A stretch of DNA of 7,264 nt, from positions 1 to 7,264 of IMG/VR virus record IMGVR_UViG_2565956631_000003; one strand, 5' to 3'. The position numbers were made by a program, and so were the translations under genes. The notes beneath the pieces are model-generated. The model saw only the letters and a program-made list of their open reading frames with translations, had not been told where the DNA came from and searched no databases. This document shows positions 1,499 to 6,285 of this stretch, one piece after another (the first letter of the stretch is position 1; each line of letters starts with the position of its first letter). Source of the DNA: a virus (Duplodnaviria; Heunggongvirae; Uroviricota; Caudoviricetes).

Positions 1499-2935
1499 TC
1501 AGAATCCTCCTTTCTTCTTGGACTGCGGTTCCTCGCGTTCACGGCGGCGCATTTCAGCAGACTGTTGGTCTGTGTCATAAATAGCGCCATTTGCCTGTAT
1601 GCAATACACCGTGCCGGTATTGCCATGGCGATTGAGGCGAAGGATTAGTTCGGTTTCACCAGGAGGAACGCTGTCATCAAAAGCACCTTCACGATGGATC
1701 CCCACCCAATAATCGCAATCCTGTTCAATCTGCCCTGTATCTCGTGAGTCACTTGGTAATGGGCGTTTATTGGTTCGGCTTTCCAGTGCGCGGTTAAGCT
1801 GTGTCAGAAGCACAACAACACAATCAAGCTCTTTGGCAAGGTTCTTCAGTCCTTTGGTGATCATGCCGTAAGCAAGGTCGTTGCGATCGGCCTTCTCAGC
1901 GGTCATTAGTGTCAGGTAATCGACCAGAATCATGCCAACACATCCTTTTTCTCGCTTGATTCGACGACTTTCGCTGACGATTTGAGCCAGAGATAATCCC
2001 GGCGTGTCGTCGATGTAAAGCAGGTCGATTTCACTCAAGCGATTGGCTGTTTCGATCGCCCTGTTGAAGTCACCATCGTAATCACCCTGATAGCCGTCAT
2101 CGGCGTCATTTGTCGCCGGAAGGTAAAATATATTCGGGTTAACACCAGACTTCTGCCCTACCAGTTTTTCCAGTATCTGGTCACCTGGCATTTCAAGGCT
2201 GAACATCAGAGCTGGCTTTTTCTCATGCACTGCGCAGTTGATTGCCATCTGGCTGTATAGCGTCGTTTTCCCCATCTTAGGGCGAGCGCCAATGACAAAC
2301 AGAGAGCCTTTAACCAGACCTTTCGGTGACAGCATCCTGTCCAGCGATGGGATCCCTGTGCTCATTCCTCGTTGTTCGCCTGACGGGTCAAATCGCTTCT
2401 CAAGGTCGCTAACCCAGTCTTCCATGACCTCACCAAATGAGCGAAGGCCGCGACGCGATCCGGTTTTTGCATGGTCTGTCAGTTGCGTGAAAATCGCCTG
2501 AATAGCTTCGTACTTCTGCGTTGCAGTCATTCCGTTGCGGGAATAGAGCAATTCCGTCGCTTCAGTCATGCGGTTGATGGCGTAGCGTTCCATTGCGGTT
2601 TCACGAACCTGCATTGCATAGGCAACGATGTTTGCTGCGCTTGGCGTGTTCTTTGCGATCTCAGCGATATAAGCAAAACCGCCAACAGACGCCGTTAACG
2701 ATTTACGCTCCAGTTCATCGAAAAGCGTCAGGCCATCTACTGGCTTTTGCTCACGGTGCATTCTGGTTATTTCTTCGAAAAGGATTTTGTGTGGTCGACT
2801 GTAAAATGAATCAGGCTTCAGCATCGCCAGGACTTTCTGGACGCGCTCACTGCTGTCATCATCCAGAAGCAATCCACCAATCACCGCCTGCTCTGCCTCG
2901 ATGCTATGGGGCGGCGCATAAAAATTATCGGTCAT
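1499..2935 (-). CDS. Replicative DNA helicase, DnaB family (P22 gene 12-like)
   Basis: DnaB-like N-terminal region (SIEAEQAVIGGLLLD), Walker A GARPKMGKTT, and a RecA-like C-terminal core. Start taken as ATG 2935..2933 (MTDNFYAPP...) with GAGGG 9 nt upstream; the ORF track's 2950 start is an upstream in-frame GTG. The start overlaps the stop of the upstream initiator gene (ATGACCGATAA). Confidence 0.9.
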   Translation of the reverse strand: MTDNFYAPPHSIEAEQAVIGGLLLDDDSSERVQKVLAMLKPDSFYSRPHKILFEEITRMHREQKPVDGLTLFDELERKSLTASVGGFAYIAEIAKNTPSAANIVAYAMQVRETAMERYAINRMTEATELLYSRNGMTATQKYEAIQAIFTQLTDHAKTGSRRGLRSFGEVMEDWVSDLEKRFDPSGEQRGMSTGIPSLDRMLSPKGLVKGSLFVIGARPKMGKTTLYSQMAINCAVHEKKPALMFSLEMPGDQILEKLVGQKSGVNPNIFYLPATNDADDGYQGDYDGDFNRAIETANRLSEIDLLYIDDTPGLSLAQIVSESRRIKREKGCVGMILVDYLTLMTAEKADRNDLAYGMITKGLKNLAKELDCVVVLLTQLNRALESRTNKRPLPSDSRDTGQIEQDCDYWVGIHREGAFDDSVPPGETELILRLNRHGNTGTVYCIQANGAIYDTDQQSAEMRRREREEPQSKKKGGF

Positions 2936-3824
2936 CGTGTTCACCCTCACGAACTTTCAGGTAGGTATTATCGTTAAGCAGGAAATCAAATCCCTTTTTG
3001 TGCCAGACGGTTCCGCGTTGATGGTTTAGGCGCTCTTCGAACATCCATCGGCAATTTTCGCCTACGTAGCTCAAATAATTTCTCCAGTCCTGCATCGTGA
3101 ACCCATGCCCGTCAAGCTGGCGTGTTATCACTCCGGCTTTTCGCCAGAACGTTCGGATCTGGTTTTTACGCTTGTCATTCAGTGCGCGGATTTTTGGCGC
3201 TTCAGGAAGGATTTCGTGGTAAGCATCGACAACATCCTGACAGCTAACGGAAGGTTTTTTCTTGTCAGACTTTTTGTCTGCTGCGGTACTCTCTAATACG
3301 TCAGTATTAGAGATAATATTATTATATTCTTTATCTGTGGTAATTTGCTGGTAATCTGCTGGTACAGTATTGCTTGCAGGCATTGGTATTGCTGGCTTTG
3401 AGGTGGTAATTTGCTGGTAATCTGCTGGTACAAAATTTGACTGATAATCGTCATATTTCTCTACCGAGAAAACTGAGAATTTACCGTGTGAAACCCAGTC
3501 AATCATGCCGAGCTTTTTGAACTTTCTAAGCAGGTACTGAACGCGATCTGGTTTGAGTCCTGTTTCAAACGCCAGAGAGTTTCTACCGCCAAGTAGCTTC
3601 CCTCTGCCTACCAGAATTTCTCCTGCGTCAGTCATTACATACTCAGGCGTATGCTTTGCTTTGAGGATTAAGTGAACCCACAGATGCGCAGCTTCTGCGT
3701 CCTTGTAAAACGGCACATCCATAATTTTACGGTGCAGCAAGGCATACCCCTTACCGCTGCTTTGATGCGGTTGTTGTAGCCTTCTGGCCTCTCTGGCTTC
3801 GGCTAGATTAGATATGTTACTCAT
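2925..3824 (-). CDS. Phage replication initiator (lambda O / P22 gp18 functional analogue) containing the origin
   Basis: 299-aa ORF immediately upstream of, and coupled to, the helicase. N-terminal region looks like a winged-helix DNA-binding domain. A central duplicated peptide [10 protein letters not shown] is encoded by the iteron DNA. Family assignment is by position and architecture, not a confirmed match. Confidence 0.75.
3305..3431. repeat. Replication origin-like iteron array with flanking AT-rich tract, inside the initiator gene
   Basis: Two perfect 30-bp copies of GTGGTAATTTGCTGGTAATCTGCTGGTACA at 3336-3365 and 3402-3431. Each holds two sub-iterons of about 11 bp (GGTAAT[T/C]TGCTGG), with degenerate copies between (GGTATTGCTGG at 3384-3394). 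Adjacent AT-rich stretch at 3305-3335 (ATTAGAGATAATATTATTATATTCTTTATC) lies downstream in the gene's direction, as in lambda ori. Confidence 0.65.
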
Positions 3825-3963
3825 GACCTTTCTCCTTCTGCATCAGCTTCACTTTTTCCAACTCAGCCCGGAATCGACCAGGCTGCTTGAAGCTGGACAG
3901 GAAGCGATCACGTAGTATGTGTTTGTGAATTTTGTCCTGGTAAGGACTGAGTTGTTTTGTCAT
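3817..3963 (-). CDS. Small 48-aa basic ORF between cII and the initiator gene
   Basis: ATG at 3963..3961 preceded by GGAG at 5 nt. Translation [48 protein letters not shown]. Its TAA stop overlaps the initiator start (ATGAGTAA), suggesting translational coupling. Absent from the ORF track, presumably because it is short. Confidence 0.35.
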
Positions 3964-3973
3964 AATTACTCCT

Positions 3974-4049
3974 GTGGATTGATCCAGTAATTCCCTCAGA
4001 ATTGCATATCAATTTGCTTAAAATCCTCGGTGGCGGCCGGGGATTTTTT
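3974..4049 (+). ncRNA. oop: oop-like antisense RNA overlapping the 3' end of cII
   Basis: -10 CATAAT at 3961-3966 with a weak -35 TGGTAA at 3938-3943. Plus-strand intrinsic terminator at 4025-4049: CCUCGG-UGGCGG-CCGGGG stem-loop followed by AUUUUUU. Predicted transcript of about 76 nt. GAUCCAGUAAU...CCUCAGAA resembles my recollection of lambda oop RNA. Confidence 0.55.
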
Positions 4050-4292
4050 CTTTGTGATTTCATCAAGCGCATACTTAAAAGCCCTGCTAATCGGACTGAT
4101 GTCTGATGCCATTCCGAAAGCACACAAGACCGAAGCAATAAATCTCCAGTCCGTTCTGCTTATCTTCGATTCATGACAGCCAATCATCTTTGCCAGACCG
4201 CGCTGGGTAAGCGTTGACAGGTTGATTAGTAAATCAGTTTCAGCGCGATCAATTTCTCGCTGTGTTGGCTTGCTGTAGCTTGCTTGTGCCAT
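3996..4292 (-). CDS. cII: CII-like transcriptional activator
   Basis: 98-aa ORF whose C-terminus ...[18 protein letters not shown] is close to my recollection of lambda CII (...TNKKRPAATERSEQIQMEF). Helix-turn-helix segment ...SKISR.... Sits between cro and the replication genes. AGGAAA Shine-Dalgarno upstream of ATG 4292..4290. Confidence 0.85.
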
Positions 4293-4407: not shown

Positions 4408-4593
4408 TTATGCCGCTTGGCGGTAAGCACTTTCTTGATACTTCAGGGCGCCAGCTGTAACGATTTCCAATCGATAGGCGTCTTTCTCTGGGATAACTTC
4501 TTTCCACTGAGAGACTGCTGCATCGCTAATGCCTAGTGCTTTAGCAACAGCACGCTGGGTTCCGAAGTGGTCAATAACATCTTTTTTGTACAT
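4408..4593 (-). CDS. cro: Cro repressor (P22 Cro-like, 61 aa)
   Basis: MYKKDVIDHFGTQRAVAKALGISDAAVSQWKEVIPEKDAYRLEIVTAGALKYQESAYRQAA matches my recollection of P22 Cro. GGAG Shine-Dalgarno 7 nt upstream. Divergent from the repressor gene across the operator region. Confidence 0.9.
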   Translation of the reverse strand: MYKKDVIDHFGTQRAVAKALGISDAAVSQWKEVIPEKDAYRLEIVTAGALKYQESAYRQAA

Positions 4594-4673: not shown

Positions 4674-5324
4674 ATGAATACACAACTGATGGGTGAGCGT
4701 ATTCGCGCTCGCAGAAAAGAACTCAAGATTAGGCAGGCTGCCCTTGGAAAGATGGTTGGCGTGTCTAATGTTGCTATTTCCCAATGGGAGCGATCTGAAA
4801 CTGAGCCCAATGGCGAAAACCTATTGGCCTTAGCCAAGGCTTTGCAGTGCTCCCCTGATTACCTGTTGAAAGGAGAGGATAGTCTTTCAAACATTGCCTA
4901 TCACAGCAGGCATGATCCAAGAGGTTCGTATCCTCTAATTAGTTGGGTAAGCGCAGGATGTTGGATGGAAGCTGTAGAGCCATATCATAGGCGTGCAATA
5001 GATAACTGGTACGACACAACGGTAGATTGTTCTGAAGACTCTTTTTGGCTCGACGTTAAAGGCGATTCAATGACTGCCCCGGCAGGACTGAGTATTCCTG
5101 AGGGGATGATTATTCTCGTCGACCCAGAAGTCGAACCACGTAATGGAAAGCTGGTAGTCGCCAAACTTGAAGGAGAAAACGAGGCGACATTCAAAAAGTT
5201 AGTTATTGATGCCGGTAGAAAATTCCTGAAACCACTCAATCCACAATACCCAATGATTGAAATCAATGGGAACTGTAAAATCATTGGCGTTGTCGTTGAT
5301 GCCAAGCTAGCAAACCTTCCTTAA
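4674..5324 (+). CDS. c2: Prophage repressor, P22 c2-type (HTH plus S24 LexA-like autopeptidase domain)
   Basis: 216-aa ORF MNTQLMGERIRARRKELKIRQAALGKMVGVSNVAISQWERSE... with an N-terminal helix-turn-helix, an Ala-Gly cleavage site (VSAG-CW), a catalytic Ser in GDSM and a downstream Lys. Near-full-length match to my recollection of the P22 c2 repressor. Confidence 0.92.
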   Translation: MNTQLMGERIRARRKELKIRQAALGKMVGVSNVAISQWERSETEPNGENLLALAKALQCSPDYLLKGEDSLSNIAYHSRHDPRGSYPLISWVSAGCWMEAVEPYHRRAIDNWYDTTVDCSEDSFWLDVKGDSMTAPAGLSIPEGMIILVDPEVEPRNGKLVVAKLEGENEATFKKLVIDAGRKFLKPLNPQYPMIEINGNCKIIGVVVDAKLANLP

Positions 5325-5528: not shown

Positions 5529-5638
5529 CCAGAACTTGAGTGGTTTTGGGGATGGCGCGAATTGCAGCTGCAAGACAGCGATCGAGAAGATAAGCACCTC
5601 GACGCGTCATGCGCCAAAGCCACTTAAAGGAGACCATC

Positions 5639-5944
5639 ATGGTAACCATTGTCTGGAAAGAATCCAAAGGTACGGCAAAAAGCCGCTACAAAGCTCGCAG
5701 AGCAGAACTTATTGCCGAGCGACGCAGTAATGAAGCACTGGCGCGAAAAATTGCTCTAAAGCTCTCTGGTTGCGTCAGAGCAGACAAAGCAGCATCACTC
5801 GGAAGCATTTGCTGCAAGAAGAAAGAAGAAGTCGTTCGAAAAAATAGAAGTATTTATTACAAGGATTCAAACCCATTAGGAAACAAAATACATGCAGTCC
5901 AAAAAATAAAATTGTACAGTAAACTACCGTACGGTGCTTATTGA
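5639..5944 (+). CDS. N: N-type transcription antiterminator (phi21-like arginine-rich motif)
   Basis: AAGGAG at 5627-5632, 6 nt before ATG 5639. N-terminal MVTIVWKESKGTAKSRYKARRAELIAERR is the arginine-rich boxB-binding motif I recall for phage 21 N. First gene after nutL. The in-frame ATG at 5609 lacks a Shine-Dalgarno. The 3' third of the gene is markedly AT-rich. Confidence 0.8.
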   Translation: MVTIVWKESKGTAKSRYKARRAELIAERRSNEALARKIALKLSGCVRADKAASLGSICCKKKEEVVRKNRSIYYKDSNPLGNKIHAVQKIKLYSKLPYGAY

Positions 5945-5946
5945 GT

Positions 5947-6285
5947 ATGCTTATGGTGAAAAAGACTATTTATGTTAATCCTGACCGCGGACAAAACAGA
6001 AAAGTATCTGATAGAGGTCTTACATCTCGAGACAGGAGGAGAATAGCGAGATGGGAAAAGAGGATAGCATATGCATTAAAAAACGGTGTAACACCTGGAT
6101 TTAATGCTATAGATGACGGTCCTGAATATAAGATTAATGAAGACCCAATGGATAAAGTTGACAAAGCATTAGCAACACCATTTCCTCGCGATGTCGAAAA
6201 AATTGAAGATGAAAAATATGAGGATGTAATGCACAGAGTTGTTAATCACGCTCACCAACGAAATCCAAATAAAAAATGGTCATAG
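5947..6285 (+). CDS. Hypothetical 113-aa protein in an AT-rich segment immediately after N
   Basis: ORF begins at the N stop (TTG 5941, ATG 5947 or 5953; no clear Shine-Dalgarno, so the start is uncertain). Arg-rich N-terminal half (RGQNRKVSDRGLTSRDRRRIARWEKR) and acidic C-terminal half (EDPMDKVDK...EKIEDEKYED). AT-rich codon usage unlike the flanking genes. No family recognised. Confidence 0.5.
   Translation: MLMVKKTIYVNPDRGQNRKVSDRGLTSRDRRRIARWEKRIAYALKNGVTPGFNAIDDGPEYKINEDPMDKVDKALATPFPRDVEKIEDEKYEDVMHRVVNHAHQRNPNKKWS

Follow-up and report, generated by a model that had tools for sequence, protein, structure and literature searches.

The locus between cII and its downstream neighbour raises the question of what is encoded there on the plus strand, opposite to the early genes of a lambdoid phage. 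The window, meaning the whole stretch of DNA analysed here, comprises 7,264 nt of the IMG/VR virus record IMGVR_UViG_2565956631_000003. The first-pass annotation of its sequence had proposed an oop-like antisense RNA directed against the 3' end of cII, and that reading is favoured by homology to lambda oop, by the match of a dedicated covariance model and by the structure of the predicted terminator. OOP is a textbook cis-antisense RNA, known for more than 40 years. With a probability of about 0.92, positions 3957-4050 (+) are the pO-oop-tO unit of an HK022/mEp235-type lambdoid phage, orthologous to lambda oop. The predicted RNA has the antisense placement, the homology, the placement of the -10, the self-termination and the two-hairpin plan of a lambdoid OOP.

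The ORF list and the Pfam matches identify a lambdoid immunity and replication region in reverse orientation, formed by cI, cro, cII, orf48, O and a DnaB-like P. The repressor gene (cI; 4674-5324, plus strand) is P22 c2-like, with Peptidase_S24 and HTH_3 domains, and the Cro protein (4408-4593, minus strand) is of the P22 type. The remaining genes, all on the minus strand, are cII (3996-4292; Pfam Phage_CII, E 2.7e-33), which is the target gene of oop, orf48 (3817-3963, 48 aa; Pfam DUF2740, E 8.9e-29), an O-like initiator (2925-3824) and the DnaB-like helicase P (1499-2950). The cII stop codon is located at 3996-3998 and the intergenic gap between cII and orf48 is 32 nt. The place of the lambda O start is occupied here by orf48, and the DNA upstream of pO falls within this small gene, named 'orf48' in U02466, the original HK022 entry. 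Several RefSeq phage records (mEp235, UAB_Phi20) call orf48/DUF2740 a 'tail protein', though it is an early-operon ORF between cII and O; the name looks like a propagated misannotation.

The best match across the whole window is mEp235. Between 3800 and 4300 the identity is 99.6% with mEp235, 99.0% with HK022 (U02466 included) and 98.4% with VT2-Sakai and many Stx phages. As in mEp235, the cII-orf48-O-P module is combined in the window with cI and cro of the P22 type, and N-like and Nun-like genes accompany them. The N-like ORF (5609-5944, plus strand) contains an arginine-rich motif and has a weak Pfam N_peptide match (E 0.0037); the Nun-like ORF (5941-6285, plus strand) lies directly downstream, and both are annotated adjacently in mEp235. 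One phage with an N-type antiterminator plus a Nun-type terminator/excluder deserves attention.

Three other elements were identified near the locus. A TTGC-N6-TTGC sequence at 4270-4283 (+), in the 5' end of cII and directed at cI, is the CII-binding motif of a pRE-like promoter and carries that annotation in mEp235 and VT2-Sakai. In the O-like gene, repeated coding stretches around 3293-3454 (a 10-residue stretch present twice and 11-residue repeats in the mirror-frame ORF) mark origin iterons, annotated as 'ori iteron 1/2' in VT2-Sakai. Finally, the terminator scan reported a terminator-like hairpin on the minus strand at 4127-4152, within cII, with 9 pairs, 4 of them G-C, and a weak T tail, which is probably due to chance (1.2 expected per region).

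The reverse complement of lambda 38569-38749 was compared with window positions 3900-4070, and the two align without gaps from TTTGTCATAAT to the T-run. From the -10 to tO the identity with lambda is 79% (74/94), against 57% at the DNA level in the rest of cII and 35% between the CII proteins, so that the part under the antisense overlap is conserved beyond what coding would explain. Lambda oop is taken here to start at G 38675 and to be 77 nt long (38675-38599), and the aligned base in the window is G3974. The same length is given in the literature (PMC3349717, PMC5488031), and the overlap between cII and oop in lambda is 55 nt (PMC3349717). The layout and size of lambda oop, which the first-pass annotation had taken as its model, correspond in the predicted RNA at the -10, the +1, the terminator and the overlap by this direct alignment.

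The likeness to lambda OOP comprises the antisense position between cII and the next rightward gene, the -10 TGTCATAAT lying over the ATG of the downstream gene, the G at +1, the length of 76-77 nt, the 54-55 nt of cII overlap, the two hairpins and a terminator core that codes for PAATE. There are also differences. In the first hairpin the 3' arm reads AUCAAU here and CUGGAU in lambda, and the 5' stem pairs nt 1-10 with 35-44, with an additional inner helix of 7 bp, whereas nt 4-14 pair with 35-45 in lambda. The terminator has two swapped base pairs, the TTGAGT -35 is not in place, and the gene downstream of cII is orf48/DUF2740 instead of O.

The predicted oop RNA extends over 3974-4050 (+) and measures 76-77 nt, from G3974 (+1) to a 3' end in or just after the T6 run. 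Ending at 4049 or 4050, it would cover 54 or 55 nt of the cII coding sequence, stop codon included, together with 22 of the 32 intergenic nt. The last 17 cII codons and the stop are complementary to it, in agreement with the roughly 54 nt of complementarity claimed at first. The arrangement being cis-antisense, complementarity with the pR transcript is perfect and takes in the 22 nt that follow the cII stop codon together with the final 54-55 nt of cII. Folding of 3974-4049, which had been suggested as a check, gave a minimum free energy structure of two hairpins at -30.4 kcal/mol. Shuffled versions of the same segment averaged -16.9 +/- 2.55 kcal/mol (z = -5.29), none of the 200 being as stable. 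When the halves were folded singly, the 5' hairpin reached -13.6 kcal/mol (z = -3.26) and the terminator a z of -4.47.

The second hairpin is the predicted intrinsic terminator tO (4020-4049, plus strand), with a 12-bp stem (4020-4031/4036-4047), a GGCG loop and a T6 run at 4044-4049. The terminator scan reported it as a plus-strand hairpin at 4020-4047 with 12 pairs, 5 of them G-C, and a 4-nt loop followed by the T-run; the hairpin with U-tract first placed near 4025-4049 is therefore present. Thirty distinct oop sequences, obtained from 120 IMG/VR loci and from reference phages, form mosaic classes, and across the 30 variants 98.3% of the cells of the terminator helix are paired, compared with 36-62% in slid controls. 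Two pairs are changed on both sides (C-G/U-A and G-C/C-G), with a covariation score reached by none of 500 shuffles, and the loop varies freely in sequence and length. These double changes are non-synonymous in cII, where lambda Lys-Arg-Pro...Glu-Arg-Ser becomes Lys-Ser-Pro...Glu-Asp-Phe, and it was therefore the hairpin, not the peptide, that was kept. Lambda CII remains active without its last 17 residues (PMC3349717), so the coding constraint is weak, which fits a hairpin kept over a peptide. The two compensatory changes are very probably a single event spread by recombination and count as one observation.

A covariance model, R1, was built from 10 lambda-class oop variants of IMG/VR prophage contigs with the two-helix structure of lambda. 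In the window it gave a full-length match at 3974-4049 (+) with 55.4 bits and an E-value of about 2e-12 (2.1e-12), a rough figure owing to the shortened calibration, and its runner-up was the reverse strand of the terminator, with 12.5 bits. An identical match was obtained in HK022, VT2-Sakai and mEp235, and lambda scored 106 bits. On P22 and mEp213-type loci R1 gave no match at E<=1, and one model therefore does not cover all the oop classes. At the gathering score, Rfam 15 gave no match for the window and none for lambda's own oop; the latter result implies that Rfam 15 has no OOP family, so that a negative from it is uninformative. The Rfam matches seen at E<=10 (Ref55, BSnc120 and His_leader) were rejected as chance-level and terminator-driven. 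A covariance-model search had been named at the outset as a means of refuting the antisense RNA: as a test against Rfam it is invalid, and in the form of the custom model it returned a match.

The predicted promoter pO is an extended -10 at 3958-3966 (+), formed by TG at 3958-3959, one base, and the CATAAT that the first-pass annotation had correctly located at 3961-3966. Its bases and position are the same as those of the lambda pO -10 in the alignment. Read on the minus strand, its CAT (3961-3963) provides the orf48 start codon ATG, and the lambda counterpart CAT is the ATG of O (787-789 in locus L003). The best-placed candidate for a -35, TGGTAA at 3938-3943 (+), was read by eye; with a 17-bp spacer and a match to TTGACA at just three of the six positions, it is probably not genuine. 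The promoter scan missed pO, since at a spacing of 16-18 bp no hexamer matches TTGACA at 4 or more of 6 positions. Since the search for a -35 gave just 3/6 matches, pO is read as an extended -10 promoter and not as a plain -35/-10 pair. The lambda -35, TTGAGT, located 17 bp from its -10, is displaced here by a 9-bp gap and by another upstream module, which consists of the coding sequence of orf48.

The TG of the extended -10 is kept in all the oop classes, including the P22 type (TGGCATAAT), and a lambda/P22 hybrid pO with the lambda -10 and the P22 -35 region has been described (PMC3349717). Full activity of lambda pO is reported to require about 94 bp of upstream sequence (PMC5869508); its replacement by the orf48 module in the window leaves room for a different promoter strength. 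The predicted pO of the window is likely to be active, as P22 shares the upstream module and makes oop.

A LexA-box-like palindrome, CTGT-N8-CCAGTA, spans the predicted oop +1 (3972-3989, both strands) and has one match in the window against 0.01 expected by chance. It agrees at 14 of 20 positions with the LexA consensus (TACTGTATATATATACAGTA) and is conserved over the oop start of lambda as CTGTTGATAGATCCAGTA. A LexA binding sequence has been located within lambda oop-pO (PMC5869508), and we infer that it is the same site. The palindrome over +1 may link pO to the SOS response.

The proposed mechanism follows that of lambda. RNA polymerase would start at G3974, a position given by the lambda alignment, from the extended -10, would transcribe against the pR operon and would stop at the terminator at 4020-4049, producing an RNA of 76-77 nt. 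By analogy with lambda, RNase III would cut the duplex of oop and cII mRNA, the cII message would decay and the level of CII would fall, which would favour lytic growth. Convergent transcription from pO may also dampen the read-through of pR into orf48-O-P and tune replication in this way. Inhibition of cII by lambda OOP through RNase III is attributed to Krinke and Wulff (1987, 1990) in the citing passages of PMC5869508 and PMC3985674, and Krinke et al. (1991) is also cited for RNase III cleavage of lambda oop/cII.

This second effect could even be the main one. Interference of convergent pO with pR transcription into orf48-O-P and the origin would then be the function of the element and the RNA a by-product, a reading that is compatible with an antisense role and that is considered possible, though on the unlikely side. 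In lambda, a mutation of the pO -10 raises pR read-through and impairs the replication of phage and plasmid, and raised levels of oop RNA leave plasmid copy number unchanged (PMC3985674). Across lambdoid phages the promoter and the 5' end are the most conserved parts, the RNA body changing with the cII allele. Every allele examined, however, has a strong terminator inside the 3' end of cII, with about 55 nt covered, which interference alone would not need, and this terminator was maintained through compensatory changes. Moreover, CII activity in lambda is abolished when OOP is provided in trans by plasmids (PMC5869508, PMC3349717).

A conserved 33-bp pO/oop core, TTTGTCATAATTACTCCTGTGGATTGATCCAGT, lies at 3957-3989 (+). 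It contains the -10 and, beginning with the oop +1, the first 16 nt of the predicted RNA; on the opposite strand, orf48 has its Shine-Dalgarno sequence and ATG there. Its reverse complement is identical to the published 33-bp 'high homology region' ACTGGATCaATCcACAGGAGTaATTATGaCAAA, listed for 23 lambdoid phages with HK022 and Stx phages among them (PMC3349717). The orf48 Shine-Dalgarno, AGGAG, is complementary to 3969-3973, immediately outside the predicted oop RNA. In the IMG/VR contigs (loci L004-L123) the core is a mosaic joint, where at least three unrelated upstream modules meet at least four oop/cII-end bodies. The upstream modules are lambda O, HK022 orf48 and an HK97 gp53-like ORF, and additional crossover points were identified inside oop.

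Part of the conservation could come from the other signals in the core, namely the orf48 Shine-Dalgarno and ATG and the recombination joint. It is highly improbable that all of it does, with the C-terminus of cII kept as coding sequence, the core as the orf48 ribosome-binding site and start or as a patch of homology for recombination, and pO too weak to matter. The joining of so many modules and bodies at the core and the presence in it of AGGAG and the orf48 ATG would be expected under this explanation, as would a pO with no recognisable -35, but the compensatory changes in the terminator stem are non-synonymous in cII, the dispensable end of CII puts little coding constraint on it (PMC3349717), and the hairpin with its T-run is specific to the oop strand. 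P22, with the same upstream module, does make oop, and all classes have kept the TG of the extended -10.

The strand of the hairpin is given by three properties: it is more stable on the plus strand (-16.8 kcal/mol) than on the minus strand (-11.1 kcal/mol), the U-G wobbles of the helix (kept in 26/30 and 20/30 variants) would turn into A-C mismatches if the cII mRNA formed it, and T6 follows on the plus strand only. Together they indicate a terminator for the oop strand only. An action on the other strand in place of tO, as a structure or terminator within the pR/cII mRNA that would, for example, stabilise the mRNA 3' end or cause a pause ahead of orf48-O, is scarcely credible and was rejected on stability and on the missing U-tract: the reverse-strand hairpin has a z of -3.55 and the weak covariance-model match mentioned above, but both wobbles are lost as pairs there while most variants keep them as U-G, only four U follow the stem, all of them from the stem extension, and termination 40 nt ahead of the stop codon would leave cII truncated.

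The first hairpin of the predicted antisense RNA is a 5' stem-loop of the HK022 class (3974-4017, plus strand), with an outer helix of nt 1-10/35-44 and an inner 7-bp helix of nt 14-20/26-32, GUAAUUC/GAAUUGC. The lambda register of this stem was tried for all the variants and rejected, with 74% of the cells paired and no covariation; the HK022 register gave 79% paired over the variants, also with no covariation. Each class fits its own 5' register and none covaries, so the claim of covariation was dropped for this stem, and the support for the predicted stem-loop is purely thermodynamic. Natural recombinants with mismatched 5' and 3' arms fold less well (-23.3 and -24.1 versus -30 kcal/mol). 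The P22- and mEp213-type cII alleles have the same pO core and 5' end, with another hairpin and U-tract in their own cII 3' end. HK022-class oop might be more than a sequence variant of lambda oop, the oop alleles being structurally matched to the cII alleles with allele-specific pairing kinetics or stability; this suggestion is offered with considerable doubt. If it were true, recombination at the 33-bp joint would sometimes yield an altered lysis-lysogeny set-point.

The element itself is already known, being the HK022/Stx-phage version of lambda oop. The 76-nt sequence is identical in HK022, mEp235 and VT2-Sakai, the surrounding 500 bp are 98.4-99.6% identical, and nothing of substance distinguishes the oop of these phages and of the Stx phages from that of the window. 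The pO/oop core of HK022 and Stx phages and their cII-oop-orf-O-P organisation have been tabulated (PMC3349717, Fig. S1/S2). OOP is listed for 'lambda and Stx phages' in two reviews (PMC5488031, PMC12197685), and according to the reviews on Stx phages 'sequences similar to' OOP occur and OOP 'is predicted to' repress cII. No direct mapping of an oop transcript of the HK022/Stx class was found in a search of the literature on 933W, Shiga toxin and HK022, which yielded only reviews and PMC3349717.

RNA-seq has revealed P22 oop, an RNA antisense to c1, with its 5' end at GAUUGAUCC (PMC13397905). It shares with the window the orf48-type upstream module, the TGnCATAAT -10 and the first ~15 nt (GUGGAUUGAUCCAGU); past nt ~15 its body and terminator are unrelated, and the RNA is shorter, of ~63-67 nt. 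In the transcriptome of the BTP1 prophage, OOP-BTP1 is annotated at the position of lambda OOP (PMC7067206).

The RNA between cII and orf48 is unannotated in the records of HK022, mEp235 and VT2-Sakai, and the lambda RefSeq record likewise lacks oop. A match to the 123-bp segment 3938-4060 was identified in 1217 of 5426 complete E. coli genomes (~22%), and the best match is at least 99% identical in 644 E. coli records. In the five E. coli matches listed, the features under the oop segment are the two flanking CDSs only. The practical point is thus one of annotation, a known feature being routinely missed by gene annotation, and this gap would be filled by a curated OOP covariance model, or by several that represent the lambda, HK022 and P22 classes. 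In Stx phages the element is predicted to have a further significance, as it may affect the lysis decision and hence the release of toxin.
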